Origin: Reinekea sp.
Lineage (GTDB): Bacteria > Pseudomonadota > Gammaproteobacteria > Pseudomonadales > Natronospirillaceae
DNA: 64,000 nucleotides
Assembly (NCBI GenBank): GCA_037389025.1
Contig: JARRJP010000013.1
Coordinates: forward strand, 54,305 to 118,304
Reading direction: 5' to 3'
Every line of letters starts with the position of its first letter. The first letter of the stretch is position 1. A model generated the notes under the pieces. The model was not told the DNA's origin. It did not search any database and saw nothing but the letters and a program-made list of their open reading frames with translations. Positions 20,186 to 36,317 of this stretch are shown piece by piece. Position numbers and translations under genes: made by a program.

Positions 20186-20335
20186 TCACTTTACCACGAC
20201 GTTGTTCGCACCAATATACTTGTATTCATCTACTGAAATAATACTGGCGGTCTCTTCTGCATTTAACTGGCCACATAGGAGAAGAACACTCGTCGAAAAT
20301 AACGCTGAAATATTTTTAACCATTCGTTTCTCCAT
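20186..20335 (-). CDS. Hypothetical 49-aa secreted peptide (signal-peptide-like N-terminus)
   Basis: ATG 20335 is 1 nt after the PdxJ-like stop. MEKRMVKNISALFSTSVLLLCGQLNA|EETASIISVDEYKYIGANNVVVK has an n-h-c signal layout with an A-x-A-like site. Confidence 0.4.
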   Translation of the reverse strand: MEKRMVKNISALFSTSVLLLCGQLNAEETASIISVDEYKYIGANNVVVK

Positions 20336-20336
20336 A

Positions 20337-21068
20337 TTAATCACTGCAAATTTCCAAGTACCTTGAAACCACTTGGTCAATGCCATATTCAATACACTCC
20401 ATGGTAAATGCATGACCTATAGAAACTTCAGATATGTCACCTAAATCCAGGAGCGCTCTCAGATTTTCTAGATTTAGATCGTGTCCAGCATTCACGCGAA
20501 CACCGTGCTTATTTGCCAACTGAACACATTGAAGATAACGCTCTTTTGCTTCTACAAAATTCGATTGATTGAACTTTGTGGCCCATTCCTCCGTATATAA
20601 TTCCACTGCACCTATATTGTTCTCAATTATGCTTCCCATTTGAGTGATATTTGCATCGAGGAACACTGCACAGCGAATATCTGAACTAGCAAACGCTTTA
20701 TTCAACATGGAGAGATACTCTCCTTCATTCTGTACATCATATCCATGGTCGGAGGTAAGCTGGTTATCATCATCGGGTACTAATGTACATTGGTGCGGCT
20801 TAACGTCCTTAACTAGTTCAATAAACCTTTCATTTGGATTACCTTCAATATTGAACTCTATTTCCGAGTGTTTTCTCAAAAGGTCTTTTATTTCATACAC
20901 ATCTTCATATCTAATGTGACGTTGATCGGGTCTGGGGTGAACCGTAAACCCCTTAACCCCCAAGCCAATCAACCTTTCTACAAAATAGCCTAAATTAGGG
21001 TAATCGTTACCCCGTGAGTTTCTCAGCAATGCAAGCTTATTCAGATTTACGCTAAATAGAGTGCTCAT
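20337..21068 (-). CDS. pdxJ: PdxJ-family (pyridoxine 5'-phosphate synthase-like) TIM-barrel enzyme, divergent paralogue
   Basis: VNLNKLALLRNSRG, FTVHPRPDQRHI, NIEGN, TLVPD, VNAGHDL and VSIGHAF align along the full length with E. coli PdxJ motifs recalled from memory. Confidence 0.8.
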   Translation of the reverse strand: MSTLFSVNLNKLALLRNSRGNDYPNLGYFVERLIGLGVKGFTVHPRPDQRHIRYEDVYEIKDLLRKHSEIEFNIEGNPNERFIELVKDVKPHQCTLVPDDDNQLTSDHGYDVQNEGEYLSMLNKAFASSDIRCAVFLDANITQMGSIIENNIGAVELYTEEWATKFNQSNFVEAKERYLQCVQLANKHGVRVNAGHDLNLENLRALLDLGDISEVSIGHAFTMECIEYGIDQVVSRYLEICSD

Positions 21069-21076
21069 AGAAATAC

Positions 21077-21865
21077 CTAAATTACGCAGGAAAGTGTTTT
21101 GTTAAATTCAATATTATAAAAATAGAGACCTCCATGCCCGAAAAGCATTACATAATACGAAGGTTCAAAATTGCATATTTTAAAGCGTTTATCTCCTGAC
21201 AAATCGGGATAAAGCTGGTGATTTGTTCCCTTTATAGTTGTATAGGGAACCCCTTGATATTCACCGTGAATATTCTGATGACAGTGACCAAAAAACACAT
21301 GTTTTACAATGTCACTAAAACAAGAAAGTAATTTATAAAATTTGTCGCTATTTTCCAGGCCAATATCATCATAACACTTAACATTGATTTGAAAAGGGTT
21401 GTGGTGCATAAAAAGATATACATCACGTTTGTCTTTGCTAGATTGTTCAAGAACTCTTTTCAACCAATTCATTCGAGAAGAACACAAACTTCCTGACGAC
21501 CGACCGGGGACTGTTGTATCAAGAAATATAAATATCTTGTTGCCATACGCTTTACTGAACTGTACATACCTTCCCTGATAAGTATCTAATTCAATATGAT
21601 TGCTAGCCTGGAGAAAGCTGTCGTGATTTCCTAACAAGGTGTGATATGGAATGGTCAATTCTTGGTTACATTCCGAAAAATATCTATAAGAGATCTCAGA
21701 ACCGTCATTAGATATATCACCCATGCAAAATATCGCCTGCGCATCTGTATGGTGTTCAGCTATATGAGAAACCGCCTTCCTGTAATTAATATCTGAATTA
21801 CAGGAATAGGTTTCAACACTCCTCCCAGTCAAATGGAGGTCCGACAGTAAAATATATTTCTCCAT
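21077..21865 (-). CDS. Calcineurin-like metallophosphoesterase (CpdA/GpdQ-like)
   Basis: Motifs SDLHL, GDISNDG, GNHD, MHH and GHCH in canonical order. Confidence 0.8.
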   Translation of the reverse strand: MEKYILLSDLHLTGRSVETYSCNSDINYRKAVSHIAEHHTDAQAIFCMGDISNDGSEISYRYFSECNQELTIPYHTLLGNHDSFLQASNHIELDTYQGRYVQFSKAYGNKIFIFLDTTVPGRSSGSLCSSRMNWLKRVLEQSSKDKRDVYLFMHHNPFQINVKCYDDIGLENSDKFYKLLSCFSDIVKHVFFGHCHQNIHGEYQGVPYTTIKGTNHQLYPDLSGDKRFKICNFEPSYYVMLFGHGGLYFYNIEFNKTLSCVI

Positions 21866-21879
21866 TTATAGGTTACTGC

Positions 21880-22539
21880 CTACAATCGATTGTCGACATC
21901 ACCAGAATAAACAGTACCTCTATACTGTATTACTATGGAATGGGTATCTACATCATGACGCCAGCCTTTAATATCGTATTTATTTTTTAGGTCTGAAACA
22001 GTGTCATCTATATTAAAAATGGTTTTGCCTGCAATTCTATTTCTGAATTCAGTTTCGCTTTCAATGGGTTTATCGGATATTTCAGATTCATACATTTCGT
22101 ACAGGATTCTAAAGAAACGTACTGTAAGTTTCTCTTTGAATGATTCGGATATACTCTTCTGCCATATTCCAGGCTGGGAATAGAAGACCTGCATTACTGA
22201 GCCGAGATATTTTGAAACGGTTAATGCTTTATAAACTTCAGACTTGTTATCCAACGCGTCACTTGGAGATAATACATAACCTAAATTAAGATATTCCGAT
22301 AAGCAAAGAACTGTCTTTTCAATAACTTCGTGCTGAGCCATTGAAGGAAACCTTGGCCCCAAATGATTTGCTATTTCAAATATGCTCCACTTTCCGTTAA
22401 TCAACTTCCAAGCAGAGTTTGAAAATTCATCTAATCGGCACAAATCCGTCAGCTTAATCAGAAAGATATCTCCGTTAACCACCCTCCTTCTAACCGCATG
22501 ATGTTTCACTAATACATCACCCAAGGCAACCATAGTCAT
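21880..22539 (-). CDS. PqqD-like (RiPP recognition element-type) N-terminal domain protein with an unknown C-terminal domain
   Basis: Residues ~20-90, RLDEFSNSAWKLINGKWSIFEIANHLGPRFPSMAQHEVIEKTVLCLSEYLNLGYV, parallel PqqD [33 protein letters not shown]...VVEFLQ. ATGA overlap with the upstream gene. Confidence 0.55.
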   Translation of the reverse strand: MTMVALGDVLVKHHAVRRRVVNGDIFLIKLTDLCRLDEFSNSAWKLINGKWSIFEIANHLGPRFPSMAQHEVIEKTVLCLSEYLNLGYVLSPSDALDNKSEVYKALTVSKYLGSVMQVFYSQPGIWQKSISESFKEKLTVRFFRILYEMYESEISDKPIESETEFRNRIAGKTIFNIDDTVSDLKNKYDIKGWRHDVDTHSIVIQYRGTVYSGDVDNRL

Positions 22540-23348
22540 ACCGCTTCTCTTCTCAAACAGTAAGCTTTTTCAACCATCTTTTCCGAAAGATGAAGTGCAG
22601 TATTCACATAGTCTCTTTTGTCATATTTGTTTATTGGTAGGTTATGCATGAAAGACCAGTAATCCAAATACACTTCCCTCGCGTCAATATCGCTTTCATA
22701 TATTGCTTCCAAAATTTTAAAACGATGCTTGTTTTTAGGGTTAGTCCACCCTTTGGAGTAAAGCAGCAAATCTATCGAAAATTCCAGGGTTTCCTGGGAT
22801 CGCCGAATCGCACCGGATATATTCCCGCTGTTCAGCATGCCTACAGTGTCATCGAAAGAATCATCTATATAAATACGCTTATTCTCAAAAAGATATCGAT
22901 TGATTTTTACGCGATCAAAACGATCAACAATATCTGCATAGGCATCAGTATTCCTAACAACACGGCAATTAAATATTCTATGTGCGAAATCAATTTCGTT
23001 TTCATCTAGCGCATCCAAAAAGCTATTTTCAGCGTTATCTACCTGTAAGCTATCTATTTTGGACGCGAGCCTATCTATGGACTCGTAGCTCCATATTTCC
23101 ACATCGACTCTTCTACTTTTAAAGTAATGGATTTGGATTTTAAACCTACAGCCATCAGTCACGAATTCTTTAATGGTATTGAGATCTTCGACCACCATAT
23201 ACACGTCAATATCAGAGCTATCATTTCCAATACCCTCCACCAACGAACCGGCTATCCATACTGGAGTACCTTCTGTAACTTGATTTCTAATAAGATCAAG
23301 TATTTCATCGTGGTGGACTCCTCCAATTGATTCATTCATATATTTCAC
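22536..23348 (-). CDS. Pol-beta superfamily nucleotidyltransferase with a helical C-terminal domain (paralogue of 30638-31678)
   Basis: GSLVEGIGNDSSDIDVYMVV (G-S...D-x-D) NTase motif. VDVEIWSYESIDRLASKIDSL is shared with the paralogue. Confidence 0.75.
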   Translation of the reverse strand: MKYMNESIGGVHHDEILDLIRNQVTEGTPVWIAGSLVEGIGNDSSDIDVYMVVEDLNTIKEFVTDGCRFKIQIHYFKSRRVDVEIWSYESIDRLASKIDSLQVDNAENSFLDALDENEIDFAHRIFNCRVVRNTDAYADIVDRFDRVKINRYLFENKRIYIDDSFDDTVGMLNSGNISGAIRRSQETLEFSIDLLLYSKGWTNPKNKHRFKILEAIYESDIDAREVYLDYWSFMHNLPINKYDKRDYVNTALHLSEKMVEKAYCLRREAV

Positions 23349-23351
23349 TCT

Positions 23352-23963
23352 CTACGCTATCAAGGGTTTTATCGCAGTTAGTACCTGATCTTTCGTTGAT
23401 GACAGATCGCCCGAATTATCGATAACCCGATACTTGATTTGAAATTTTCCGAACACATGGAGATAAGATTCACCAAACATCCTCATGAGTTCGATATCTT
23501 CATCGTCACCACAAGACTGCCTGTCTAGATACCGTTTTTCCAAGTTTGATATGCCAGCATCGATATATAAGGTCAGGTCAGGTTGAATAAATTTAGAAAG
23601 CAGGTCCTTTAAAGGTGTAACATCTTCAAAAATATCAATATAGGCGAGATAACAAGGCAGAAATCGGTCAAAGACAACATAATCGTAATTCTCCATGGCC
23701 TTAACATTCTGATCATAGCAACGAATAAAATCCAATAGTATCCCTAACCCTATGTTTTTCCCGAAGGCACTTTCTTTCCAGTCTCGCGAATCGCCGTACT
23801 TTCTTGGAAAGTATTTCTTTACTAAATTTAGGTTTCCATCTTCATATTTTGTACGTCTAAAGAAGAAGACGTTTTTCAGTATATTTGACTCTTCCAACAT
23901 GTTTACTATGGTGGATTTTCCACTTCCGTCTACACCACATATCGCAATCGATTTCATTCCCAA
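23352..23963 (-). CDS. dTMP-kinase-like P-loop kinase, paralogue 1
   Basis: Walker A ICGVDGSGKST. FPRKYGDSRDW and FDRF motifs are shared with 23967-24596 and 26474-27073. Confidence 0.7.
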   Translation of the reverse strand: MGMKSIAICGVDGSGKSTIVNMLEESNILKNVFFFRRTKYEDGNLNLVKKYFPRKYGDSRDWKESAFGKNIGLGILLDFIRCYDQNVKAMENYDYVVFDRFLPCYLAYIDIFEDVTPLKDLLSKFIQPDLTLYIDAGISNLEKRYLDRQSCGDDEDIELMRMFGESYLHVFGKFQIKYRVIDNSGDLSSTKDQVLTAIKPLIA

Positions 23964-23966
23964 AAC

Positions 23967-24596
23967 CTAAAGATAACTGGCAATTATTGATTTAACTTGA
24001 TTTAGCGTCTGCTCAAACGAACCATCATTACTCACGCTTTCCACGTCTAAATCAGAATTCTCGAAGAGATTGACATATGCCGCCAATAATTTCTTCTGGC
24101 ACTCTTTGGTTTCAAATTCATGAATGTCATCGGAACTGCTATCCATACGTTGCCGAATTAGCTCTTCTTTCAGAGTGATAAAAATCACCTTCTCTGGGGC
24201 CGGAACGGAATCTAAAATTTGTAGGGAAATATTGCTTGGCTGCTCATTAATTAGCGTAAAAGCCTTAAAACAAGGCGTATGCCTGTCTGTTACAACGAGC
24301 TTATATTGAGTCGAACTTCCTTCTAATACGGGTCTAATTACCTGATTGTAATAGTTTACATAATCTATCGCACAGCTAATTGCTATAGCCTGATTGAATT
24401 CCCCGCTATACCAATCTTCAATGCCATTTTTTCTAGGAAAGCATTTTTCCACTGTAGATTCTGCTATAGCAGGTCCTCGACCAACAAAATACACCTTCCC
24501 TTTCAACTCGGGTTCAGTTTCAAGTTTTTTAAAAATTGAGGTTTTTCCCACGCCGTCAATACCGCATAGGGAAATAACTGGAATTATTTTTTTCAT
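23967..24596 (-). CDS. dTMP-kinase-like P-loop kinase, paralogue 2
   Basis: Walker A LCGIDGVGKTS, then FPRKNGIEDW and TDRH. Confidence 0.7.
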   Translation of the reverse strand: MKKIIPVISLCGIDGVGKTSIFKKLETEPELKGKVYFVGRGPAIAESTVEKCFPRKNGIEDWYSGEFNQAIAISCAIDYVNYYNQVIRPVLEGSSTQYKLVVTDRHTPCFKAFTLINEQPSNISLQILDSVPAPEKVIFITLKEELIRQRMDSSSDDIHEFETKECQKKLLAAYVNLFENSDLDVESVSNDGSFEQTLNQVKSIIASYL

Positions 24597-25339
24597 TAAC
24601 TAGACACCATTAACTTAGCTGCTTCTTGATAATTAAATAGCCCATCAGACAATTCAACCACTGCGCCATTAAGAGCGTAGTTTGGTGACATTATCTGTTG
24701 GTAAATAGGCTCCACAACATTTTCCACTGCAAGCGGCCTTTCAATAACAAGTTGGCTACATAATTCATTTATGTATTCTTGTCCTTTATCAAATAGACCT
24801 ATACTGAAAACGCAAACACTTCTTCCAGAACCTGAAATCTCCATTGCTGCTGATCGAACAAAATTGCAGAGAGCGGTCGCGGTAGCGTTGTATAAACCGT
24901 TATATTTTACCGCCCCTTTTTCTCCCGCCAGACCAGTAATATTGATAAACTGCCAATTCTTCTTATGCTTTTTTAAATAACTAAAATAGCTGGCCATTGC
25001 TTCCACGGGAGCACGAAACCCCACCCGGGTGACGTTTTCTATTTCTTCTTGTGATATTTCATATACTGAAGAGTGGTTCCACATTCCACAACAGTAAAGC
25101 ACGGTGATATTTTCGTAATTATCTACTTCATCACGAATGACATCGCCTGCAACTACACTTTTGGCAGCTAAATCCATTGAGATTAATTTGATAACGAATT
25201 CTTCTTTGTTGAGACTATCTATATATTGGTTTTTATTTCTATAAACACCAATAATATTCACTTTTCCGCTCTCACCTAGTCTCTTAGAAATACTAAAACC
25301 GAGAAAAGAAGATATGCCATAGATAACAACCAGATTCAC
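24596..25339 (-). CDS. Short-chain dehydrogenase/reductase-like Rossmann protein
   Basis: VVIYGISSFLGFSISKRL glycine-rich dinucleotide motif. I prefer GTG 25339, just after the GT stop at 25341. The ORF-track ATG 25381 would overlap the GT gene by 41 nt. Confidence 0.55.
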   Translation of the reverse strand: MNLVVIYGISSFLGFSISKRLGESGKVNIIGVYRNKNQYIDSLNKEEFVIKLISMDLAAKSVVAGDVIRDEVDNYENITVLYCCGMWNHSSVYEISQEEIENVTRVGFRAPVEAMASYFSYLKKHKKNWQFINITGLAGEKGAVKYNGLYNATATALCNFVRSAAMEISGSGRSVCVFSIGLFDKGQEYINELCSQLVIERPLAVENVVEPIYQQIMSPNYALNGAVVELSDGLFNYQEAAKLMVSS

Positions 25340-25340
25340 T

Positions 25341-26471
25341 CTACATACACTCCAGTATTTTACGAATGGAATTCTCAGCATTTTCGAAACCGAGGTTCGG
25401 CTTTAGTTCTGTTTCTTCGGGATCAAGTTTACTTGCGCTTGTTATACACAAATCTAAGTCTTCGATAAACGAACAAAAATATGCATTTTCTGTTGACTCA
25501 GCAAATTCGGAGGCAATCAAGAATTGCTCGTCGTGTCCAGAGAGAGCCCATACGACCTTTCCTCCGGCTATATTTTTCACATCAGAAAGAAAACCAACAC
25601 CAGCACGAGATACAACCAATTTGGCCTCAGATAGGTATCTGTAGTACTCGAGAGATATTGAATCCACTACGAGCCGATCAATACCTGAAATCTTCTGTAA
25701 GGAGTTGTTTAACTCTTCCCCGAGGCATGAAAATACCTTTACGTGGCTACGTTTATCAAAACAGTTAAGTGCACTCTCTATAGCCTTGTGGGTATAGTCA
25801 TACGTTTCCGAAATCCATTGAGCGGCATCTACTTCCTCTGAACTATATGAAGCGGTATTTGAGGGGAACTCAACGCCGCCACCGTTCGCAATAACAACAA
25901 TATTGTCTTCGGTCTGAGCACCACAACTAGGTAGAGTATAAAAACCATGGCTCACAATCTTGCTAGAAATATTACTATTACTAATTAACGTTTTTTTCTC
26001 CGGCAGTTTATCCAAGGGTAGAAGGTAGTCACTCTCTCCTAGTAGACTCACCAGATAAGTAGAAGGCCCTTTATTTTTTGGCGTATCAATAAGTATTTCA
26101 GGGTTGAATAAGCCTACAGCTTTACAGCTGGTTCCCTTAGTAAGCGGCCCCATTAAATACTCACCACCAAAAAAACAAAGGTCTGCATTAATACTCTCTA
26201 TTAGCGGAAGTATATTTCGTACACCGTGATCGTAGGGGCATAAGCCCGGCCAATCCAAATACTCCTTACGCACATCCAGCTGATGCAGCTTGTATTCAAT
26301 ATCAATAGGGCCACGACCGGAAAGGAATTCATAACCGTTTGAATAGCTTGCGATATGCACTTCAAGCCCTTGATCATAAGCTGCTTTCGCCAGCGCTAAA
26401 CCCGGTATAACATGGCCCAACCCTGGCCGCCCCCTCAATACAAACAGAGCTACCTTCTTATTTAAATTCAT
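25341..26471 (-). CDS. GT-B fold glycosyltransferase (MurG/GT1/GT28-like)
   Basis: N-terminal GRPGLGHVIPGLALAKA and C-terminal VVSRAGVGFLSD...GHDEQFLIASEF resemble MurG/UGT-type donor-binding motifs. Confidence 0.65.
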   Translation of the reverse strand: MNLNKKVALFVLRGRPGLGHVIPGLALAKAAYDQGLEVHIASYSNGYEFLSGRGPIDIEYKLHQLDVRKEYLDWPGLCPYDHGVRNILPLIESINADLCFFGGEYLMGPLTKGTSCKAVGLFNPEILIDTPKNKGPSTYLVSLLGESDYLLPLDKLPEKKTLISNSNISSKIVSHGFYTLPSCGAQTEDNIVVIANGGGVEFPSNTASYSSEEVDAAQWISETYDYTHKAIESALNCFDKRSHVKVFSCLGEELNNSLQKISGIDRLVVDSISLEYYRYLSEAKLVVSRAGVGFLSDVKNIAGGKVVWALSGHDEQFLIASEFAESTENAYFCSFIEDLDLCITSASKLDPEETELKPNLGFENAENSIRKILECM

Positions 26472-26473
26472 GG

Positions 26474-27073
26474 TTATAGCGCTTCCAGAATATGTTCTAC
26501 AATTTCTGAGACGGAGTGCTCCAGCTCTTGAGTATTGTCTACCGTCACTACATCGGACATGTCAGAAAATAGACCATCATAGCTATCAGAAAGCTTTCGT
26601 ATTACATCTGGCGTTTCATCGTTACTCGGCCCTCCTCTAAGATGTTGCCTTTCTATAGCAACTTCGGGAGGTACTTTTATGTAAAAGGTTTTGTCCGGCG
26701 TCCTTACATTGTCAAACATCGAGAAATAGTCTTTATCTGTATTCACAGCTGACATGTACGACGTGTAACAATAACTATACCTATCACATATAACGATGGT
26801 ATTCTCCTTCATTAGAGGCTGAATGTATTTGTCATAGTGAGATATAAAATCCATACCCGTAGCAATAGAGACTAGCTGCGCAAATTTACCCCCACTCCAG
26901 TCCTGATCTCCACCCCAAAAATCGCAAATAAGGTTTACGTTGGTTTTAATATCCTTTTTCAGAGCAGTAGAATAATGCCCAATCTCCTGCAGGCGTTTGG
27001 ATACCAAATCTACCAAAGTAGATTTACCACAACCATCTACGCCACATAACACAAATAATTTTGATGAACTCAT
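26474..27073 (-). CDS. dTMP-kinase-like P-loop kinase, paralogue 3
   Basis: Walker A LCGVDGCGKST, then GGDQDW and CDRY. Confidence 0.7.
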   Translation of the reverse strand: MSSSKLFVLCGVDGCGKSTLVDLVSKRLQEIGHYSTALKKDIKTNVNLICDFWGGDQDWSGGKFAQLVSIATGMDFISHYDKYIQPLMKENTIVICDRYSYCYTSYMSAVNTDKDYFSMFDNVRTPDKTFYIKVPPEVAIERQHLRGGPSNDETPDVIRKLSDSYDGLFSDMSDVVTVDNTQELEHSVSEIVEHILEAL

Positions 27074-27085
27074 AGTTCTAATTCT

Positions 27086-27757
27086 CTATACAACGCGATA
27101 ACTTTCTAAAAGAGTCAATAGGTTATCGATATCTGACCGAGTAACTTCTCTGGTATTTTTTAAACTCTCAGGAGTTCTTTCCTTTGAGCCATAGCGCCAC
27201 CAGGTTTCTTTTGTTCCAAAATCGTAATGGATCGCTCTCTGTTTCTGAGCCGGTGAGCGCAACATTAAGGATATACACTTATCCTCTCCTACCGCTCTCA
27301 AGTTGTGGATAACAGAGTGGTCAATAAAGTAAGGGATATTCTTTACTTCATTTTTTATGTACACAGGTTTAATTTGGTCTGCGTCATGTAGAATCGAGCC
27401 GTCATCCATTGGGCTATACAAAGTATGTTTGTAGCCACCGTGCAGTATCAGACTTGTAAAGTTCATTCTGTGGCTGTGTGGAATATCACTGGAATGTGGA
27501 TACATCACATGCATACGCAGTCTCACGCCAGTTTCTTTGTCACTGAAGAGAACATATTTTTCGATATTATAGTCTTTCTCGCAGCGTCCAAATTTTTCTT
27601 CATCTTCATAGAGATCAGTTACCAATGATTTAAGTAGCTCCTTATCTTCACTCAAGTTCATCAGCGCATTTTTTGTGACGACTTCCACCGACTCGGTATC
27701 TTTCCAATCTAACGCCAAGACCGGCCCCAAGATGTCGTTTAGCTTTTCAATATTCAT
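27086..27757 (-). CDS. Hypothetical protein, possible cupin-fold metalloenzyme
   Basis: MHVMYPHSSDIPHSHRMNFTSLILHGGY...VIHNL is a His-rich beta-strand pattern reminiscent of cupin or cysteine-dioxygenase-like proteins. The assignment is weak. Confidence 0.35.
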   Translation of the reverse strand: MNIEKLNDILGPVLALDWKDTESVEVVTKNALMNLSEDKELLKSLVTDLYEDEEKFGRCEKDYNIEKYVLFSDKETGVRLRMHVMYPHSSDIPHSHRMNFTSLILHGGYKHTLYSPMDDGSILHDADQIKPVYIKNEVKNIPYFIDHSVIHNLRAVGEDKCISLMLRSPAQKQRAIHYDFGTKETWWRYGSKERTPESLKNTREVTRSDIDNLLTLLESYRVV

Positions 27758-27759
27758 AT

Positions 27760-28362
27760 CTATACCTTCCTAATGATAGCTTTTAACCATTTATCTTCCT
27801 TCCGGTGCGCTCGAGTGTCGATGGAAACCCAAAGTTCAACAATTTGAACACCAGGAATGTCATTTATAAACTGTTTGAACCTTTCCTCATTCATGTGAAC
27901 AAACAATCGGCCACTTTTTTCACTTATTTTGTCTTCGCTTCCATATTTATAAGAAGCGTAAAACACTCCGTCATTCTCCAAGTATGAAATAAGCTGTTTG
28001 TAAACAGATGCAAGATCTGCATAAGGAACATGCAACAGAGAGGCGCTCGCCCATATACCATCAAACTTTTGATTTCCGGGGTCATATGTATCAAACCTTT
28101 TATGCTTTACATCTACACCTGTTCGCTCTCTAGCTATGGAACACATCTCGAACGATGCATCAAAAGCATCGACGTCAAAACCTTTGGAAAGAAAAAAGTC
28201 GATGTCTCTCCCCGGCCCGCATCCTGCTTCTAAAATGGCACCACTATTTGCAATATATTTAGTGAACCTTTCCCGAGCATCGTCTACATTTTCTTCCAAA
28301 CTTCTCGATGTGAACTTGTTTGCATTCTCGTCGTAGTACTTAATTGTGTGCTCAACTAACAT
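27760..28362 (-). CDS. Class I SAM-dependent methyltransferase
   Basis: Motif I ILEAGCGPGRD, with post-I acidic residue FDVDAFDAS. 200 aa. Confidence 0.8.
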   Translation of the reverse strand: MLVEHTIKYYDENANKFTSRSLEENVDDARERFTKYIANSGAILEAGCGPGRDIDFFLSKGFDVDAFDASFEMCSIARERTGVDVKHKRFDTYDPGNQKFDGIWASASLLHVPYADLASVYKQLISYLENDGVFYASYKYGSEDKISEKSGRLFVHMNEERFKQFINDIPGVQIVELWVSIDTRAHRKEDKWLKAIIRKV

Positions 28363-28376
28363 TGCTAGCTTCCAAT

Positions 28377-29642
28377 CTAATATTTAAAAAATGGGGAATC
28401 GGCCTCTGCAAAAGGTATTAGCTCATCAAACCAGCTTGCGCTACCCGAATATTTTGATTTAAAAGGTATCTTCACTCTTGTCGAATCCCTATGCTGAATA
28501 AACTGCATTAGAAAATTCCCATTCTCGCCTGGCTCATAGTGGAGGATTTCAACCTTCCCATACTTTGTGCTCATTACCGGCCCACGAACGGTACGAGCCA
28601 GTCCGCTTGTCACCCGAATAGATTTATGAAAGATATTATATGCTTCCCAAAGCGGGACAGAGAAACAATTATTCGCTCCGGTGTCTCGTTCAACGAACAT
28701 ATAGTATGGAACAATCCCTCGATGTACCTGCGCTCTCCATAAGTTCGCCCAATTATCAGGGTTGTCATTTATGCCCTTTAATAAAGGCCCTTGGCTTCTT
28801 ATTACCGCTCCGGTGGACTGAATTGCGGCAATAGCTCTATCGGATATCTCGGTACTCATTTCTTTGGGGTGATTGTAGTGCGCCATAAAAGCCAAATGCT
28901 TACCCGAAATGGTCACCTTCCTAAACAGATTTAGAAGATCATCAGAATCAGAGTCTGTTACAAATCTTTGCGGCCAGAATGTAAGGGCTTTAGACCCGAT
29001 TCGAATATTTTCCACATGTAAAAAGTCTTTACCCAATAACGGCTCAATCATCTTTCTCAAATTACTGGTTTTCATAACCATGGGGTCACCACCGGTAATC
29101 AAGATGTCCGTTATATTTCGGTTAGCTCTTACATACTCCAGCAAGTCGGTAATTTCCTTCGACTCCATCCTCAACGGTTTATCACCAATAAATTGGGCCC
29201 ACCGAAAACAGAAAGTACAGTAGCTATGGCAAACCTGACCCGATGAAGGAAAGTAAAGAACGGTTCTTTCATATTTATGTTGCAAACCAGAAACCGGTAT
29301 TCCCCCCACTTCTGGTATATTCATTTTTAGCTGATCACCAGGGTGAGGGTTCAGCTCAGAACGTATTTCTTCTACTATTGGTCTAATGGACTCTCTTCCT
29401 AACGCTAACCCTTTCTTGATTTTCTCGTACTGCTCATTTGTGAGCATGCTTTTATTTGGAATAGTTAACCTGTATATAGGGTCATCTCTATAATTATCCC
29501 AATCAATCAATGAGTCGCAGACATACTCGTTAACACGAAAGGGCAGCACTTCAGAAACCACCTTTATTTCTTCCAGTGCTCTTTTTCCAATTTTCTTTGC
29601 TGAGTGTTCTGATGTTGTTATTATATTGCTACTTATAGACAT
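28377..29642 (-). CDS. KamA-family radical SAM enzyme (lysine 2,3-aminomutase-like)
   Basis: CHSYCTFCFRW CxxxCxxC cluster, ILITGGDPMVM, and a length and layout typical of KamA/EpmB/AblA-type PLP-dependent aminomutases. Confidence 0.8.
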   Translation of the reverse strand: MSISSNIITTSEHSAKKIGKRALEEIKVVSEVLPFRVNEYVCDSLIDWDNYRDDPIYRLTIPNKSMLTNEQYEKIKKGLALGRESIRPIVEEIRSELNPHPGDQLKMNIPEVGGIPVSGLQHKYERTVLYFPSSGQVCHSYCTFCFRWAQFIGDKPLRMESKEITDLLEYVRANRNITDILITGGDPMVMKTSNLRKMIEPLLGKDFLHVENIRIGSKALTFWPQRFVTDSDSDDLLNLFRKVTISGKHLAFMAHYNHPKEMSTEISDRAIAAIQSTGAVIRSQGPLLKGINDNPDNWANLWRAQVHRGIVPYYMFVERDTGANNCFSVPLWEAYNIFHKSIRVTSGLARTVRGPVMSTKYGKVEILHYEPGENGNFLMQFIQHRDSTRVKIPFKSKYSGSASWFDELIPFAEADSPFFKY

Positions 29643-29663
29643 GTATTTTCCGTAAATTCCCTA

Positions 29664-30650
29664 TCAAACAAGTTCATTTAGGGCTTGCTCGCACTGACGA
29701 TAATTGAATCTCGCATATTGTTTGTCTGCGCCAAAGGTTTCGCCACCTACCACCTTAAATTCTATGCCTTGGATACCTAACTTGCCGTTTTGGATTCTTT
29801 CGCCAGCTTTAAGCCACATATATTGAACAAGCAATCCAGTAACTTCATAACCCTCACCTGCAATTAGCCCGCTCACCGTGTCGAGTACTTTTTTAGATTT
29901 TTCCTTCTCGGCTTTGGCCCATTTGGAGAAATTATTCATATTCTCTGCCGCTGTAACTTGAGCAACTGAAGATACGGGGTTAAGAAATCTGCATTTAATC
30001 TCTACTAAGTTATCTATCAGAGACTTACAGGCATTTATAAACCCAACTCTTAACCCAGGCATTCCGGCCCATTTTGAAAGTGAATCAACAACTGCAACAT
30101 GGGTATCATCCACCTGCGCGGAAAACCGTTCACAGTCTCCAAAGGAATAATGAGCAAGACACTCATCAATTATCAACATACACCCGTTTTCTTTCGTCAC
30201 CGCTACTATTTTTTTCATCTCAGCACAGGAAAAGAAAAAACCTGTTGGGTTATGAGGGTTATTTACTATTAGTACCGAACATCGCTTAGAAGCGTCTTCT
30301 ATAGAACGAATGCTGGTATAAGAATACCGCTTAATATCGTAATCAAGGCCTCCAAATATCTTTGCGAACCCCGGCCAGGCGATATCTGATATAGCTACGC
30401 TTTTTTCTTTTCGTTGAAAAAATAGGGCAAGCAGCATCAGACCTTCTTTTACTCCGCTGGTGACCAACACATTATCAGTAGTTATATGGTTCGCATATTG
30501 GCTCTCAACGTAACGCGCTCTTAACTCATGCAACCCAAATTCGCAGGTGTAGTCTGCCACCGTAGAAATTTTAACTTGCGTCTTCATGAGCGCATCTGAA
30601 TATAAACCACCTCCAGCGTCCGCCAACACTGCTTTTTTCACGAGATCCAC
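29664..30650 (-). CDS. Class I/II PLP-dependent aminotransferase or decarboxylase (HisC/CobD-sized)
   Basis: VNNPHNPTG and DSLSKWAGMPGLRVGF (PLP lysine). 328 aa. Confidence 0.8.
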   Translation of the reverse strand: MDLVKKAVLADAGGGLYSDALMKTQVKISTVADYTCEFGLHELRARYVESQYANHITTDNVLVTSGVKEGLMLLALFFQRKEKSVAISDIAWPGFAKIFGGLDYDIKRYSYTSIRSIEDASKRCSVLIVNNPHNPTGFFFSCAEMKKIVAVTKENGCMLIIDECLAHYSFGDCERFSAQVDDTHVAVVDSLSKWAGMPGLRVGFINACKSLIDNLVEIKCRFLNPVSSVAQVTAAENMNNFSKWAKAEKEKSKKVLDTVSGLIAGEGYEVTGLLVQYMWLKAGERIQNGKLGIQGIEFKVVGGETFGADKQYARFNYRQCEQALNELV

Positions 30651-31678
30651 AGCCGAGTTGGTTCAGTTCCCTCAACATACACCTTGCTTCGATAGGTATA
30701 TTCCATATACTCATAGCTCTCCACATCAATATTCTTTAAATCATACCGGTTAGCTAATAACTCAATAGATTTGATATTATTTGGTGTAACGCTATATTTA
30801 TCTAGAATACTGATGGATAAATTATAAATTTGGTCACAAAAATCCAGACAATCTAGAACATACCTTTCTTTGTCTGAACTCTTCTCCATTTGATAACCAA
30901 TAAAATATATTAGCTTGAAGAAGTCACCGGAGAGCGAAGAGATATCCTGTTTTTTACTTTCTTGTAAATATGTATACATCCATTTTGGATCTACATTAGT
31001 ACAGCCATTTATATGCAAATACGCTTGCACTTGTCTCTTTAAGTTAATTTGAGATATTTCAACAGCACGATCGCGTTCCCCCTTTGATATAGCGCCAAAG
31101 ATGTCCAACAATATTGAAAAATCTGATGCCAACCAACGATAGGCAAGATAGCAGTACTTTTCTTTGGAGAATTGCGCCTGAATCTCTTTAAGCTTTCTTT
31201 CGTTTTTAATAGGAAGTGCTTCAAATATCCTATGTATAATGCTGTTTTCTCTATATTCTAGATACTTTGACAGCATTTCCAAATTACTAGTAGCGTACTC
31301 AAATAGACTCTCAACTTTATTGGCTACTTCCGCTATCGACCGGTAGCTTTTAAATTCAACATCAACTTTAATATTGGTTTCAGGTATTACCGTGTGAACC
31401 AAAAATACTTCTTCGTTCTCCACTTCCGAGATGTTGGTTGAGGTAACTATGGTTCTATTAACAGTTAACACTCTGTGGTGTTTTTCAAAATCGATTTCTT
31501 TTGCTTTAGGTAAGTTTTCTCTAAACACATAGATGTCTAGATCAGAGAATTTGTTACCTATACCTTCAATCAAGCTACTTGTGGCAATTATCAGGTCATC
31601 ATCACCAGCATAAGCATTATCCAGAATAAACTGAACTGGAACATTTACTTTACCATCTAATATTTTTATTGATTTCAT
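30638..31678 (-). CDS. Pol-beta superfamily nucleotidyltransferase with a helical C-terminal domain (paralogue of 22536-23348)
   Basis: SSLIEGIGNKFSDLDIYVF NTase motif, then VDVEFKSYRSIAEVANKVESL. 13-nt overlap with the downstream gene. Confidence 0.75.
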   Translation of the reverse strand: MKSIKILDGKVNVPVQFILDNAYAGDDDLIIATSSLIEGIGNKFSDLDIYVFRENLPKAKEIDFEKHHRVLTVNRTIVTSTNISEVENEEVFLVHTVIPETNIKVDVEFKSYRSIAEVANKVESLFEYATSNLEMLSKYLEYRENSIIHRIFEALPIKNERKLKEIQAQFSKEKYCYLAYRWLASDFSILLDIFGAISKGERDRAVEISQINLKRQVQAYLHINGCTNVDPKWMYTYLQESKKQDISSLSGDFFKLIYFIGYQMEKSSDKERYVLDCLDFCDQIYNLSISILDKYSVTPNNIKSIELLANRYDLKNIDVESYEYMEYTYRSKVYVEGTEPTRLWIS

Positions 31679-31693
31679 CTTTAGTACACATTT

Positions 31694-33058
31694 TTACACT
31701 ATGGTAGGTATTCTGGCTTCGGGTTTATACAATAGATTTTCAGCAGTCTTAATCGTCTTAACAATTCTCTCTGCCATAATGTTGAGTTCTTCTATGGTGC
31801 ATATGTAAGGTGGAGCAATTAATATGTGGTCACTCGTACCTTTCCCACTAAATCCCTCGCAGGCATAGAGTAGAATCTCGTTTTCCATTCCGATATTCTT
31901 AATAACATCAGGCATATTTATATTTTTCGAAAATGGTGTCTTATCAGACTTATTTGATACAAACTCAATAGATTGAAGAAATCCACGCCCCCTTATATCT
32001 CCCACTATCCCGCAAGAATTTAACTCCTCTTTCAATATCGAAGTTAGATACGCGCCGTTATTTTTTACCCTGCTTACCAAATCATTTTCTAGCACGTATT
32101 TCTGAGCAGCATAGCCAGCAGCACAAGACACGTTATGACCAACGTATGTACCAGCATGAATAAAACCAGATTTCATTTGTTCTATGCACACCGCAACTCG
32201 TTGACTACACAGCGTGGCCGCTAACGGCTGATACCCAGAGGCAATCGTTTTACCAACCGCAACAATGTCTGGCTGGATATTCTCAGCCTCGAATGCATAA
32301 TAATGTCCAGTTCTACCCAGGCCACACATAACCTCATCGAGAACCAATAGGATGTTGTATTTCTTGCATACTTTCGCGGTTTTCTCAAAGTAATCCTTTT
32401 CTGCCGTTACAGCTCCAGAAGTCGATCCGCCTACGGTTTCTATCAGGAAGCAGGAGATTTTCTCTGCACCAAGACGTTCTATCTCTTTTTCTAAGCTATT
32501 AATACAGTAGTCTATGTATTCGGTAGTGGTTTCAAAGGTGTCAACATTTCGATATGAGTTGCAAATTTTTATATTTTCGGAATGCCCGCTTTTTTTATCG
32601 CAAAAATATTTCTTTCTACTAAGCTGGCCACCTACTTCTAATGTTTTCAGAGAACCACCGTGATAGCTTAACTCTCGACACAGAACGATTTCTTTCTTGC
32701 CAAATCCGTTAAGTTTCCAATACTGGGCGGCCATTTTAATGGCCACTTCGATTGCCTCAGTACCTGATGGAGAAAAAACTACTCGAGAAAGCCTTCCCTT
32801 GGACTGTGTTACCAACAAGTCTGCTAGCTTTTCAGAAGCTTCCGAAGTAAAAGTTCCGGTGTGCGAAAATGGAACTTCTTTCAGCTGATTTATTGTCGCT
32901 TCGATAACAGCTTCATTGCTATAACCTAGAGATGCCACAGCTCCTGAGCAGCTATCCAAAAACCGACGGCCAGAACGATCGTTAACATATATACCACTAC
33001 TAGCAGCACAGAGGATTTTTTCAAAAGAACCCCTTTTAAGAATACTCGAGCCCATCAC
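31694..33058 (-). CDS. Class III PLP-dependent aminotransferase
   Basis: LVLDEVMCGLGRTGHYYAFE, DIVAVGKTIASG (PLP lysine) and SYHGGS. 454 aa. Confidence 0.85.
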   Translation of the reverse strand: MMGSSILKRGSFEKILCAASSGIYVNDRSGRRFLDSCSGAVASLGYSNEAVIEATINQLKEVPFSHTGTFTSEASEKLADLLVTQSKGRLSRVVFSPSGTEAIEVAIKMAAQYWKLNGFGKKEIVLCRELSYHGGSLKTLEVGGQLSRKKYFCDKKSGHSENIKICNSYRNVDTFETTTEYIDYCINSLEKEIERLGAEKISCFLIETVGGSTSGAVTAEKDYFEKTAKVCKKYNILLVLDEVMCGLGRTGHYYAFEAENIQPDIVAVGKTIASGYQPLAATLCSQRVAVCIEQMKSGFIHAGTYVGHNVSCAAGYAAQKYVLENDLVSRVKNNGAYLTSILKEELNSCGIVGDIRGRGFLQSIEFVSNKSDKTPFSKNINMPDVIKNIGMENEILLYACEGFSGKGTSDHILIAPPYICTIEELNIMAERIVKTIKTAENLLYKPEARIPTIV

Positions 33059-33069
33059 GCTTTCCTTAA

Positions 33070-33870
33070 CTAGAACCTTTCATAGTGGCGTTTTTCACAC
33101 ATTTTTTTGAATGTGTTTCTGACCAAATCACTTGCTTTGTTCACTTCGTAGTACCATTCAGGATGCCACTGCACAGCAATAACATCTCCCAGCTCAGGGT
33201 TAAGAGAAAAGGCTTCTACCACACCATCTTTACTAATGGCTTCAACTCTCAAACCAGAACCTAACTTATTGACTGCCTGTCTATGTAGGGAATTCACATC
33301 CAGTACTCTTTCAGTTTTATTCTTCTTGCTGTATTCCTGCGCAAGAATTCCGCCCTCTTGCAGGACTACTTTATGGGAATCTATGTATTTTTCTTCAAAA
33401 ACACCTGTGATGTGTACTCTGTGAGTTTCTATCTGCTCGTCCGTTGGAAGCTTTTGATACAAGGTCCCACCTAAAGCGACATTTATCTCCTGCATCCCAC
33501 GACATATTCCCATTAATGGAATTTTTTCCTCAATACACGCCAAGACCAAAGGCAAAGTGGTACTGTCTCTATCAAGGTCAATTCGGCTGAAATCAATATT
33601 TCCTTTCTCATCAAGAACTATATTTTCCTCGCCGTACTTTTTGGGCTCCACATTGGAGGGACTCCCCGTGAGAAGTACGCCATCCAACCTTTTGACAACT
33701 TCTCTTAATGTGCTGGCACGGGTTTGAGTATCTTTATACCTCCTCCCCATACAAGGAATCATAAGAGGGCTATACCCCAGACCTTTAACAATATAGTCCA
33801 GGTACTTATCAAATACTGAATGGTGGGGCGCATCCAATATTTCCACACAGCTAGATACTCCAATAATCAT
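33070..33870 (-). CDS. Peptidase C26 / gamma-glutamyl-GABA hydrolase (PuuD)-like class I glutamine amidotransferase
   Basis: Nucleophile elbow GICRGMQEINVALGGTL and the His region VQWHPEW. Confidence 0.8.
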   Translation of the reverse strand: MIIGVSSCVEILDAPHHSVFDKYLDYIVKGLGYSPLMIPCMGRRYKDTQTRASTLREVVKRLDGVLLTGSPSNVEPKKYGEENIVLDEKGNIDFSRIDLDRDSTTLPLVLACIEEKIPLMGICRGMQEINVALGGTLYQKLPTDEQIETHRVHITGVFEEKYIDSHKVVLQEGGILAQEYSKKNKTERVLDVNSLHRQAVNKLGSGLRVEAISKDGVVEAFSLNPELGDVIAVQWHPEWYYEVNKASDLVRNTFKKMCEKRHYERF

Positions 33871-33875
33871 AATTT

Positions 33876-34265
33876 TTACTCTATATTTTCAGCTTCACCT
33901 GGGTATTGGCCAAGCTCTCGTAGTTTTACGTAGTGAGGGATATCTTTAGTCGCGCGCTCAAACTCAGTATGACTAACACCAGGCATAGACAAACTTTTGG
34001 TGACACGCCCAGGAAATCTTCGCTTGTAATCTTCACGAAAGGCTTCCCAATCTGACAGTTCATTTACGGAGAAAACTCCCATCCAATCCCACTCGCCTGC
34101 CATGTTCATTGTGTGTGACCCGATGGTTTGCTTAACTTTCGGATACCAATCCTTAAAGAAGTTGTTAATTGCTTCTTGGCTCTTTGCTTCTTCTTCGGGC
34201 GTTTGTGCATAAAAAGCATCGTTATGTTTTACTAAATGAAAAATGAGGTACTTATAAGGCGCCAT
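33876..34265 (-). CDS. Hypothetical 129-aa protein, possibly a dimeric alpha+beta barrel (darcynin/Dabb-like) fold
   Basis: YLIFHLVKHND...WDWMGVFSVNELSDWEAFREDYKRRFPGR. This is only a pattern resemblance. Confidence 0.3.
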   Translation of the reverse strand: MAPYKYLIFHLVKHNDAFYAQTPEEEAKSQEAINNFFKDWYPKVKQTIGSHTMNMAGEWDWMGVFSVNELSDWEAFREDYKRRFPGRVTKSLSMPGVSHTEFERATKDIPHYVKLRELGQYPGEAENIE

Positions 34266-34277
34266 ATTTTTTACTTC

Positions 34278-35424
34278 CTATTGATTAGACAAGATTTGAA
34301 TAAGATTTCTGTATATTTCATTTTGAGCATTCAAGCTAAGATCAAATGCAGGACAAATGTGCGCATACTTTCTAACGCTATGCTTATCCCCACTTTTCTT
34401 CATTACAGATGTCCCTATATATGCCCACATATCGAAGCCCGTTAAATCAGACGCGAACTTAGCGGCCTGCTCTGAATTCATATCCAGGCGAATAGAGGTT
34501 GGGGTTACACTTATGCCAATTTTCAATAACTGCGGAAAATTCTGTCAGACCATGCGTGAATGTAAGTGGAGCTATCCCGGAAGACTGAACGGCCTCTGTA
34601 ATATCAGAAGATAAAAGAGTGCAGCTCAAGGGATGTAAACCGGAAGTCAACCCTTTGGATACAATTGAAACATCTGGTAATACCTGTTCTTCTTTTACAC
34701 CGCATGAAAGAAAAACACCATGCCTAAATGCACCTGATGCGACATCGTCTAGCACAACCAAAATTTCATGATTCCGGCAATAGGAAATAATGTCTCTTAA
34801 AACTTTACCGTCACTGTTAAACTTCCACCCTGTTGTTGGCTTTCCTTCAAGCAATAGCAATGCGGGGTAATGAATCCGCTTGCTTTCAACTAACTCTTTT
34901 AAATGATCAATAAATGTTGATCTATCTAAATTTTCATTACAGGCTAGGTATTCTTCCGATGGACATTCGTCAATGACAATCACACGCTTGTCTTTGGAAC
35001 CACCGGAAGCACGAGCCGATAGATTTCGACATAAATCTGTATTTCCATGATAACTACCTTTTCTTACAATAAAGCTTTGAATCTCTTTACCATATTTATA
35101 ATTACAGTAAACATTAGCTGCCCAGATACCAGATTCAATGGCATCAGAACCACTACTTGACCACAACATGTCTTTATATTTTTTGTTACATTGAGCAATG
35201 ACACTTTTCTGCAATTTTCTCTTCTGTTCTGACTCAAAACCAGCAGACGGAGCAATATGATTTAATACAGATTTTGAAAGCTCACAAAGCGTCTCAACAT
35301 TTGAAAAGTTTTGGGTTAATGACCCACCACTAATATCAACAAGAAACTTGCCATTCCCAAGGGAAAAATTAGAACCAATTTTTTCTTTGATATTGAGGAT
35401 ACTTTTATTCAAGTGACGTATCAT
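34278..35424 (-). pseudogene. Class III aminotransferase split by a frameshift near 34515-34530 (ORFs 34459-35424 and 34278-34526)
   Basis: The upstream ORF has LVVLDDVASGAFRHG and SIVSKGLTSG (PLP lysine). The downstream frame continues with the expected C-terminal ...HICPAFDLSLNAQNEIYRNLIQIL. The frames overlap around TTGAAAATTGG. Confidence 0.6.
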
Positions 35425-36056
35425 CAGGTACCAACCTGCAATTCTTCATCTTCTAAAAGAACCGCTTTCGTAATATCCACAATAGACACGATTGGTATAT
35501 CTAGATTTCTAGAGATACTTTCTAGTTCGGATTTTCGAGCAATAGAACCAGCAGAATTTAATATTTCACAAATCACACCAGCCCCCCCGATCCCAGCTAA
35601 ATCAAGTAAGTCTACGATCGCTTCAGTATGCCCATCTCTTACTTTCAGGCCACCTGGCTTAGCTAATAGAGTTGGAATATGACCAGGAGTACAGAATAAT
35701 TCAGGGGTGCTATCGATATCACTTAACGCCTGTATTGTCTCACTACGATCTTCTGCAGAAATACCTGAAGAACCATTGGCAAGGGAAACAGGACAACCAA
35801 AAGGAGTATCATGCACATCCTTATTATTGCTACGTAAACGTGTAATTTCAAACTTTTCTGCAAACTCACTTGGCAAAGAAACACACAAAAATCCCTTTGC
35901 AAAAGTCAACGCAAAATTCACCAATGCTGGAGTAGCATATTTTCCACTAAAAGCAAGGTCACCTTCACCCTCTCTATCATCTCGATCACGAATTATTATC
36001 GGTTTACCAGAAACCAAATAATCGATAGCCTTGTCTACTGATTTTGAATATTTCAT
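35424..36056 (-). CDS. ribB: RibB-family 3,4-dihydroxy-2-butanone-4-phosphate synthase-like enzyme
   Basis: DRDDREGEGDLAF, GISAEDR, TPGHIPTL, DGHTEA and GVICEI align with E. coli RibB catalytic motifs recalled from memory. Confidence 0.85.
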   Translation of the reverse strand: MKYSKSVDKAIDYLVSGKPIIIRDRDDREGEGDLAFSGKYATPALVNFALTFAKGFLCVSLPSEFAEKFEITRLRSNNKDVHDTPFGCPVSLANGSSGISAEDRSETIQALSDIDSTPELFCTPGHIPTLLAKPGGLKVRDGHTEAIVDLLDLAGIGGAGVICEILNSAGSIARKSELESISRNLDIPIVSIVDITKAVLLEDEELQVGT

Positions 36057-36086
36057 AATGTGTCCACACGCTAGATCATACTAGTT

Positions 36087-36317
36087 TTAGGTAACAATTA
36101 ATGCTGGAGAAAAAGTTGAATGCTGATCTTCGGGAATGCCAATTGAAGAGCCAGCCTCAGGCGCAATTGCTACTATTGCGATAGTATTCGGAACCTTATC
36201 TTTTTTTATTCTTAAGTTATTACAAATAATATTTTTTTGATTTTCGGTTAACTCAATTGTAGTTGTAGTTGCCATATTAATATCCGATTGCAGTTGTTTA
36301 TTTGTAAAAATAGCCAT
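36087..36317 (-). CDS. Small leader ORF of the island operon (62-94 aa depending on start); candidate precursor or scaffold peptide
   Basis: Open frame 36087-36371 with ATGs at 36335, 36317 and 36275. From 36275 it reads MATTTTIELTENQKNIICNNLRIKKDKVPNTIAIVAIAPEAGSSIGIPEDQHSTFSPALIVT. Ends 30 nt upstream of the ribB-like gene. No known family. Confidence 0.4.
   Translation of the reverse strand: MAIFTNKQLQSDINMATTTTIELTENQKNIICNNLRIKKDKVPNTIAIVAIAPEAGSSIGIPEDQHSTFSPALIVT

Follow-up and report, generated by a model that had tools for sequence, protein, structure and literature searches.

What does an aminomutase-like gene contribute to a biosynthetic island whose other genes encode kinases, nucleotidyltransferases and a small conserved peptide? 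This question is raised by a 64,000-nucleotide stretch of DNA from Reinekea sp. (contig JARRJP010000013.1, positions 54,305 to 118,304), which we refer to as the window. The gene occupies positions 28377-29642 of the window on the minus strand. It is a single open reading frame (ORF) with an ATG start that encodes 421 amino acids (aa), and the plus strand at this location is full of stops. The original prediction that we followed up had the coordinates and the length exactly right and gave no strand. It placed the protein in the KamA/EpmB family, whose members use pyridoxal 5'-phosphate (PLP) and S-adenosylmethionine (SAM), and proposed that it may supply a beta-amino acid building block. Our preferred answer, to which we assign a probability of roughly 0.55, is that the gene encodes a PLP/SAM radical 2,3-aminomutase making a free beta-amino acid for the island's pathway, and that it is an optional module whose activity may also be supplied from elsewhere in the genome. 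We describe the protein as a KamA-family PLP/radical-SAM enzyme, and as an island-clade member of an orphan subfamily.

The predicted family membership is borne out by several searches. The NCBIfam model for the KamA family, TIGR00238, matches the protein with an E-value of 6e-39 and 133.9 bits, which is below the curated cut-off of 199.2. Scores for this model range from 42 to 151 bits over the whole subfamily, and judging by these scores the subfamily is a divergent KamA branch outside the model's coverage. Pfam gives only a sub-threshold match to Radical_SAM. The sole solved relative that can be found by sequence is the lysine 2,3-aminomutase (LAM) structure 2A5H, with an E-value of 2e-21 for the single sequence and 3e-35 for a subfamily profile. 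An AlphaFold (AF2) model of the protein based on 46 subfamily sequences has a mean confidence (pLDDT) of 91.2. When this model is searched with Foldseek, 2A5H is again the top match (E 4e-20, TM-score 0.65-0.67 over approximately 408 columns), and the next matches, including viperin, SkfB and RlmN, are at about 1e-6. The predicted fold is LAM-like, and its match to lysine 2,3-aminomutase is far better than to other solved structures.

Within the KamA family, the protein is an orthologue of none of the characterized enzymes, because every curated model scores it far under its cut-off. The scores are 123.6 bits against a cut-off of 525.4 for AblA/KamA (TIGR03820), 111.6 against 650 for glutamate 2,3-aminomutase (TIGR04368), 101.8 against 600 for arginine 2,3-aminomutase (TIGR04468) and 95.8 against 369.3 for EpmB (TIGR03821). 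The genome also has its own EpmB gene on another contig (356 bits with TIGR03821), and the protein is therefore not the housekeeping enzyme. The protein thus does not group with housekeeping EpmB or AblA, an outcome that would have counted against the original prediction. A scan of the island for an ablB acetyltransferase, efp or epmA, or genes of lysine fermentation found none.

We also agree with the earlier view that the protein lies outside the SPASM/twitch class of radical SAM enzymes. It has five cysteines in all (residues 42, 138, 142, 145 and 326), none of them clustered, and so has no SPASM/twitch auxiliary cluster; a Pfam scan of the protein matched no SPASM or Fer4 auxiliary-cluster domain. 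The Cys-rich C-terminal domain of SPASM/twitch maturases of peptides that are made by the ribosome and modified after translation (RiPPs) is absent, as is a RiPP recognition element (RRE) domain of its own.

We were particularly interested in residues that are involved in catalysis or in substrate binding. Both motifs quoted in the original prediction are present. CHSYCTFCFRW contains the CxxxCxxC motif for the [4Fe-4S] cluster (C138, C142 and C145; 29208-29231, minus strand), and ILITGGDPMVM contains the GGD motif for SAM binding (G184-G185-D186; 29085-29093, minus strand). The candidate PLP-binding lysine is K363, in a GK motif (28554-28556, minus strand), which we take to be the probable equivalent of K337 in LAM. 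An SG motif precedes K363 by 17 residues, a spacing equal to that in LAM and in four EpmB proteins of the same bacterial family, and the C-terminal element SG-x15-GK is the same size as the element SG[YF]LLPRLV[RK]E[IV]PxxxSK of these EpmBs. Loss of the cluster cysteines or of the PLP lysine, which the original prediction had named as an outcome that would count against it, was not observed: the triad and K363 are retained. In the alignment of 46 subfamily sequences, G184 is invariant, G185 is found in 42, D186 in 45 and the GK motif in 41. The Cys triad, H258, E261, N292/D293 and the PYY motif are also conserved. In HMMER alignments, R147, two residues past the Cys triad, is aligned to R134 of LAM, and R319 is aligned to D293. 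In LAM, R134 reportedly binds the alpha-carboxylate, K337 is said to carry PLP, and D293 and D330 reportedly hold the epsilon-ammonium group of lysine.

The two residues that hold the lysine side chain are the ones that differ. In the four family EpmBs, the first site, which lies 7 residues beyond the Pro of PYY, is Asp, and the second, 10 residues beyond the Ser of SG, is Glu. In the window protein, these sites are occupied by R319 (28686-28688, minus strand), which replaces one of the two epsilon-amine ligands at the position of D293 in LAM, and by V356 (28575-28577, minus strand), at the position of D330. As read from these residues, the protein retains an intact PLP/radical apparatus for shifting the amino group of a free alpha-amino acid, has lost the ligands specific to lysine, and now places a cationic residue at the site of the substrate's distal group. 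The few known substrates of KamA-type enzymes are lysine, glutamate and arginine. Because both acidic ligands of the epsilon-ammonium are replaced, lysine or arginine is probably not the substrate, and glutamate, a phosphorylated amino acid or another substrate whose distal group is anionic or neutral seems more likely. For the same reason, the beta-lysine and beta-arginine that were originally offered as example products are disfavoured. Glutamate 2,3-aminomutase reportedly has Lys and Asn at the sites of D293 and D330 in LAM; the window protein has a basic Arg at the first of these and Val at the second.

These observations bear directly on the simplest alternative, that this is an ordinary lysine 2,3-aminomutase making beta-lysine. 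Source annotations do call its relatives 'lysine 2,3-aminomutase', LAM is its best structural match, and one relative discussed below is fused to a lysine/ornithine-type N-monooxygenase domain. However, both epsilon-ammonium ligands, which the family EpmBs keep, are lost, the AblA and EpmB models reach only about one quarter of their cut-offs, the C-terminal zinc cysteines of LAM are not present, and ablB, efp and epmA are absent from the gene's surroundings. We consider this alternative very improbable.

The annotation problem extends to a large group of proteins. A word-indexed protein search returned at least 8000 relatives, and among the best 120 listed, which were examined for identity, one is 95% identical to the window protein and the rest are 51-58% identical. 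The relatives occur in Marinobacter, Halomonas, Alcanivorax, Ectothiorhodospira, Oceanospirillum and Nitrosococcus, and also in Myxococcota, Phycisphaerae and Nitrospinota. Their database names are mostly 'lysine 2,3-aminomutase' or 'KamA family radical SAM protein'. In an exhaustive search, 244 clusters (representatives at 50% identity) score below 1e-30, while LAM reaches only 1e-21, and a search of the ESM Atlas yielded the same subfamily only. The label 'lysine 2,3-aminomutase' is probably wrong for the subfamily, which is a very large KamA branch with altered specificity residues; a result on its substrate would correct a widespread annotation. We found no paper on the subfamily in the literature.

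The normal state of subfamily members is a stand-alone gene. Among 400 sampled genomes of the same order, 38 (9.5%) have a subfamily gene, with a strong lineage pattern. When 80 stand-alone loci were clustered, no island gene and no neighbour conserved across genera was found, and the immediate neighbours are functionally unrelated. A search of seven stand-alone loci with Rfam found no riboswitch next to the gene; in Halopseudomonas formosensis, the stand-alone KamA gene has a tandem glycine riboswitch some 8 kb away (L034:2096-2308), which is probably unrelated. Two fusions were seen. One (P0124, 882 aa) carries a lysine/ornithine-type N-monooxygenase domain together with a subfamily KamA domain that is 46% identical to the window protein and keeps R319 and V356. 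In the other (P0248, 1148 aa), the KamA domain is a more distant one, and its fusion partners are a DdaG-like ATP-grasp ligase and a RidA/FkbO-like domain.

Against this background, the window's island is the first pathway link found for the subfamily, and the island has its own marker gene. NT2 (30638-31678, minus strand) encodes a rare pol-beta-type nucleotidyltransferase with 16 homologues among 5.8 billion proteins, and it was not found in the 400 other genomes of the same order. Homologues of NT2 occur on the same contigs as the closest KamA relatives, namely two Logan contigs of 24,821 bp and 16,654 bp and a 16,520-bp contig of a Sedimenticola metagenome-assembled genome (MAG). In this MAG, NT2 is MET0106404 and KamA is MET0106406, so that a single gene separates them, just as it does in the window. 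That intervening gene in the window is AT12 (29664-30650, minus strand), a class I/II PLP enzyme resembling HisC, CobD and GntC (PF00155, E 1.5e-34). AT12 has three non-self homologues: on the 16,654-bp Logan contig, together with an island KamA, on a 6,406-bp contig from ENA, and in S. salsuginis. The gene content of the 16,520-bp, 16,654-bp and 6,406-bp contigs was deduced from equal contig sizes and accession numbers. On the other side of the KamA gene, immediately downstream, is a SAM-dependent methyltransferase (27760-28362, minus strand; Methyltransf_25, E 2e-12), so that the two flanking genes are those named in the original prediction. The KamA gene starts 21 nt from the end of its upstream neighbour and ends 14 nt from the next gene. 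Seawater metagenome contigs from another study, about 94-95% identical, cover positions 20194-36203 and bridge both the AT12-KamA and the KamA-methyltransferase junctions; the position of the KamA gene in the operon is therefore no assembly artefact.

The island-borne copies are, according to their sequences, a fast-evolving clade of their own. The window protein (with its Logan counterpart P0001), P0002 and P0003 form one clade with an SH-like support of 100 (FastTree) and an SH-aLRT support of 99 (IQ-TREE with LG+C20), and the window, P0002 and P0003 genes each share a contig with an NT2 homologue. The stem and tips of the clade are long compared to the stand-alone group. Fixed differences between the island clade and 117 close stand-alone relatives include W259P/G, E328S, R273A/L and S356V. 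The last is at the site equivalent to D330 of LAM, which is Ser in all 117 of these relatives and Val in all island-clade copies.

The suggestion that the gene is optional comes from a second island. Among the 38 genomes of the window's own family, NT2 is found in just one other, G419 (69% identity), whose S. salsuginis-type island is collinear with that of the window over 18 genes. In G419, the methyltransferase gene directly follows AT12, with a spacer of only 149 nt, and neither blastn-short nor tblastn found a remnant of KamA in this spacer. G419 does have a subfamily gene on another contig (C5, L128:9848-12550). This gene is 56% identical to the window's, has a host-like GC content of 61% and belongs to the stand-alone clade; it is back-to-back with a transporter of the EamA type, a family of amino-acid and metabolite exporters. 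Of five congeners compared, G424 is the most similar, and there the sequences that flank the gene are only 73 bp apart; the gene and the transporter thus lie together on a 2.8-kb lineage-specific segment of G419. Only three of the 38 family genomes have a subfamily gene at all, namely the window's genome (within the island), G419 and G336, and in G419's genus the count is one of 13. The simplest history would be that the ancestral island had a KamA gene, which was later lost in the G419 lineage; ancestral presence is suggested because the gene occupies this same position in more distant islands. We infer that the loss was tolerated as the host could supply the activity. The KamA gene would then be an optional module of the island, and its activity may come from the island or from elsewhere in the genome. 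S. salsuginis is apparently cultured, and its combination of a KamA-less version of the island with a stand-alone copy elsewhere makes a natural comparison in which function is testable.

The same comparison could be read differently: the enzyme might perform an optional tailoring step, the conversion of one alpha-amino acid unit to its beta-isomer, in some islands only, so that the window would make a 'beta' congener and G419 an 'alpha' congener, with the stand-alone gene of G419 unrelated. The clean presence or absence of KamA between otherwise collinear islands fits this explanation, as do the S356V change at a specificity site with the long branches of the island clade, and the fact that AT12 is the most diverged protein between the two islands (49% identity, versus 51-93% for the others). 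However, G419 is alone among 13 genomes of its genus in having a subfamily gene, and has it on a lineage-specific segment, which under this explanation is a coincidence with a chance of 3-10%. We regard it as unlikely, although it is the alternative about function that we take most seriously.

Under the preferred reading, in which the enzyme makes a free beta-amino acid for the island, a mechanism can be proposed by analogy to LAM and from the conserved residues. The [4Fe-4S] cluster on C138, C142 and C145 would cleave SAM to give a 5'-deoxyadenosyl radical. An alpha-amino acid bound as an external aldimine to PLP, with K363 forming the internal aldimine and R147 holding the alpha-carboxylate, would lose a beta-hydrogen to this radical, after which its amino group would move from C2 to C3. 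The resulting free beta-amino acid would be consumed by the island's pathway of scaffold peptide, kinases and nucleotidyltransferases, and AT12 and the methyltransferase may process it further. In G419, where the island copy would have been lost, the stand-alone paralogue could make this product instead. Judging from the surrounding genes, the pathway would activate and ligate phosphorylated small molecules, possibly onto the 62-aa peptide encoded in the island. In this form, the pattern of in-island versus elsewhere-in-genome copies lends circumstantial support to the original proposal of a beta-amino acid building block.

A different possibility is that the substrate is not free: the side chain of an amino acid could already be linked to the scaffold peptide, a nucleotide or a phosphate, with its alpha-amine and alpha-carboxylate still free, and R319 would read the phosphate or nucleotide handle. 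The gene does lie between a nucleotidyltransferase/PLP-enzyme pair and a block of kinases, in an operon with an RRE-like protein and the 62-aa peptide, and an Arg in place of Asp at the distal-group site would suit such a handle. Moreover, the kinase, nucleotidyltransferase and RRE modules of fosfazinomycin biosynthesis can act on peptide-bound intermediates (PMC13622209). On the other hand, the closest relatives (50-57% identity), which keep R319, are stand-alone genes with no peptide, RRE or nucleotidyltransferase nearby, and this argues for a common free metabolite. The enzyme also lacks an RRE domain of its own. We think a tethered substrate improbable.

It is necessary to consider what weighs against the free beta-amino acid reading itself. 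The aminomutase chemistry of the subfamily is a prediction from conserved residues. The argument from in-island versus elsewhere copies depends on one KamA-less island, and the co-occurrence has a chance of about 3% given the family background or about 10% given the order background. The difference at the D330-equivalent site, with Val in the island clade versus Ser in stand-alone members, means that their products may differ. Finally, the window copy may not be fully functional, since it is without a conserved and structured segment of 21 aa (discussed next) and the first aminotransferase gene of its island is frameshifted.

The missing segment corresponds to an in-frame gap of 63 nt between codons 14 and 15 (29600-29601, minus strand), with GCA microhomology at both ends. 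Apart from 21 residues that are missing after position 14, the window protein is identical to the Logan protein P0001 (442 aa). The 95% identical relative, P0002, P0003 and stand-alone members all have these residues, which contain the motif RF-K-V-Y-T-x-R / RF(K/R)VY(T/G), conserved in more than 90% of the 117 relatives. In a model of the 442-aa form, the segment has pLDDT values above 90 starting at residue 21, and residues 24-26 form a strand. The first aminotransferase of the island, AT3a (34278-35424), is split by a frameshift in the window, whereas G419 has it as one ORF of 419 aa (L121:8746-10005). The seawater relative has 476 letters against the window's 363 over 34433-34797.

These defects could indicate that the window copy is an inactive or impaired allele in a degenerating island, which would be compatible with any function of the intact orthologues. 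The 63-nt gap removes a predicted structured motif that more than 90% of relatives conserve, and the split AT3a is consistent with decay. However, a Logan contig that probably comes from the same sample encodes the full 442-aa protein, and all catalytic residues of the window copy are intact. In addition, the EpmB gene of the same assembly (contig C32, L084:1411-2391) has a 29-aa in-frame internal gap relative to three congeners, which removes the core strand RxHTRTP...RIT; this EpmB is either a defective enzyme or an assembly artefact of the MAG. The in-frame gaps may thus be real decay or assembly artefacts, and we consider a decaying allele doubtful.

Returning to the reading in which the enzyme makes a free beta-amino acid, a broader version of it can be formulated, although only tentatively. 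The subfamily as a whole might shift the amino group of a non-basic (acidic or phosphorylated) amino acid, and the beta product might be required for a new class of natural products made on a scaffold peptide by kinase/nucleotidyltransferase ligation, with island and stand-alone copies being interchangeable. If true, this would be the first radical SAM aminomutase tied to an RRE/scaffold-peptide pathway. A result on the enzyme would also help to define the product of this undescribed peptide-scaffold island.

The island itself comprises about 20 tightly packed genes on one strand (20337-36272, minus strand) and is AT-rich. Its GC content is approximately 36-42%, versus 45-49% in the flanks, and there is transposase debris at its upstream end; it is rare and horizontally acquired. 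Its genes encode the conserved 62-aa peptide, a RibB-type DHBP synthase, class III aminotransferases, a PuuD-like C26 hydrolase, two pol-beta nucleotidyltransferases (NT1 and NT2), three dTMP-kinase-like kinases (K1, K2 and K3), a glycosyltransferase (GT), a short-chain dehydrogenase/reductase (SDR), the RRE-like protein, a phosphoesterase and PdxJ. The gene labelled 'PqqD' (21880-22539) has a sub-threshold match to Pfam PqqD (E 0.019, 15.8 bits). Candidate promoters and terminators matched no better than expected from shuffled sequence. A daptide-like reading of the island, suggested by a peptide with a C-terminal Thr together with an aminotransferase and a methyltransferase, was tried and rejected, as the daptide models score far under their cut-offs.

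The 18 collinear proteins of the G419 island differ considerably in their identity to those of the window. The values are 82% for the peptide, 75% for RibB, 56% for AT3a, 93% for a 129-aa protein, 72% for C26, 67% for the other class III aminotransferase (AT3b), 69% for NT2, 49% for AT12, 67% for the methyltransferase, 85% for a 223-aa protein, 67% for K1, 66% for GT, 66% for SDR, 64% for K2, 61% for K3, 67% for NT1, 51% for the RRE-like protein and 58% for the phosphoesterase. The 129-aa (33876-34265) and 223-aa (27086-27757) proteins match no family and are the best conserved between the two genomes, at 93% and 85% versus 49-75% for enzymes with a family match. No homologue of PdxJ (20337-21068 in the window) follows the phosphoesterase in the G419 island (L121/L122) within the 35 kb examined, and PdxJ is therefore, like KamA, a variable module, in this case at the island's end.

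Some observations concern the C26 hydrolase (33070-33870). Its second-best NCBIfam match is gamma-glutamyl-CDP-amidate hydrolase of the Campylobacter phosphoramidate pathway, which hints at phosphoramidate-type chemistry. NT2 and C26 sit next to each other as a conserved pair in at least 15 metagenome loci (L088-L108) and on a Neorhizobium megaplasmid (L130), where their companions include kinases resembling NDK, guanylate kinase or thymidylate kinase, a split transketolase, an SDR, an ATP-grasp enzyme and an MFS transporter. No KamA gene was found at NT2-C26 loci elsewhere (32 loci and L130).

We finally compared the enzyme and its island to known systems. LAM (KamA of Clostridium subterminale, 2A5H) and AblA share with it the fold, the CxxxCxxC and GGD motifs, the Arg for the alpha-carboxylate, the PLP lysine at equal spacing and, presumably, the radical/PLP-dependent 1,2-amino shift. 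However, identity to LAM is approximately 22%, D293 and D330 of LAM correspond to R319 and V356, the N- and C-terminal regions differ, the zinc-cysteine site at the C-terminus of LAM is not in the window protein, and the gene lacks a lysine-fermentation or ablB context. EpmB (YjeK), which acts in the beta-lysylation of elongation factor P (EF-P), is likewise a KamA family member with the same spacing of the SG...K tail, but EpmBs keep the Asp and Glu ligands of lysine and are about 100 aa shorter, and the EpmB gene is on another contig. Glutamate 2,3-aminomutase (Eam) resembles the window protein in having a basic residue at the D293 site (Arg here and, reportedly, Lys in Eam). It falls in a different clade, however, and the second specificity site is Val or Ser in our subfamily rather than Asn. 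BlsG, the arginine 2,3-aminomutase of blasticidin S biosynthesis, is similarly a KamA-family enzyme dedicated to a secondary-metabolite cluster, although the Arg at the distal-group site of the window protein argues against a guanidinium substrate.

Two further systems are comparable at the level of the gene cluster. A precedent comes from incednine biosynthesis, where the KamA-type, glutamate-aminomutase-like enzyme IdnL4 acts with the PLP-dependent decarboxylase IdnL3 to provide a beta-amino acid starter unit (PMC11284099). The window's island likewise combines a KamA-type enzyme with a PLP enzyme, but it contains no polyketide or adenylation machinery. The late-stage module of fosfazinomycin biosynthesis consists of the peptide FzmZ, the RRE protein FzmT, the nucleotidyltransferase FzmU and the kinases FzmF and FzmK, and follows an activation-ligation logic (PMC13622209). 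It has no KamA-type enzyme and its kinases are from other families, while the window's island is without phosphonate genes and without an asparagine-synthetase-like enzyme. Despite these differences, the window's island resembles this module in having a small conserved peptide, an RRE-like protein, pol-beta-type nucleotidyltransferases and several kinases (PMC13622209).

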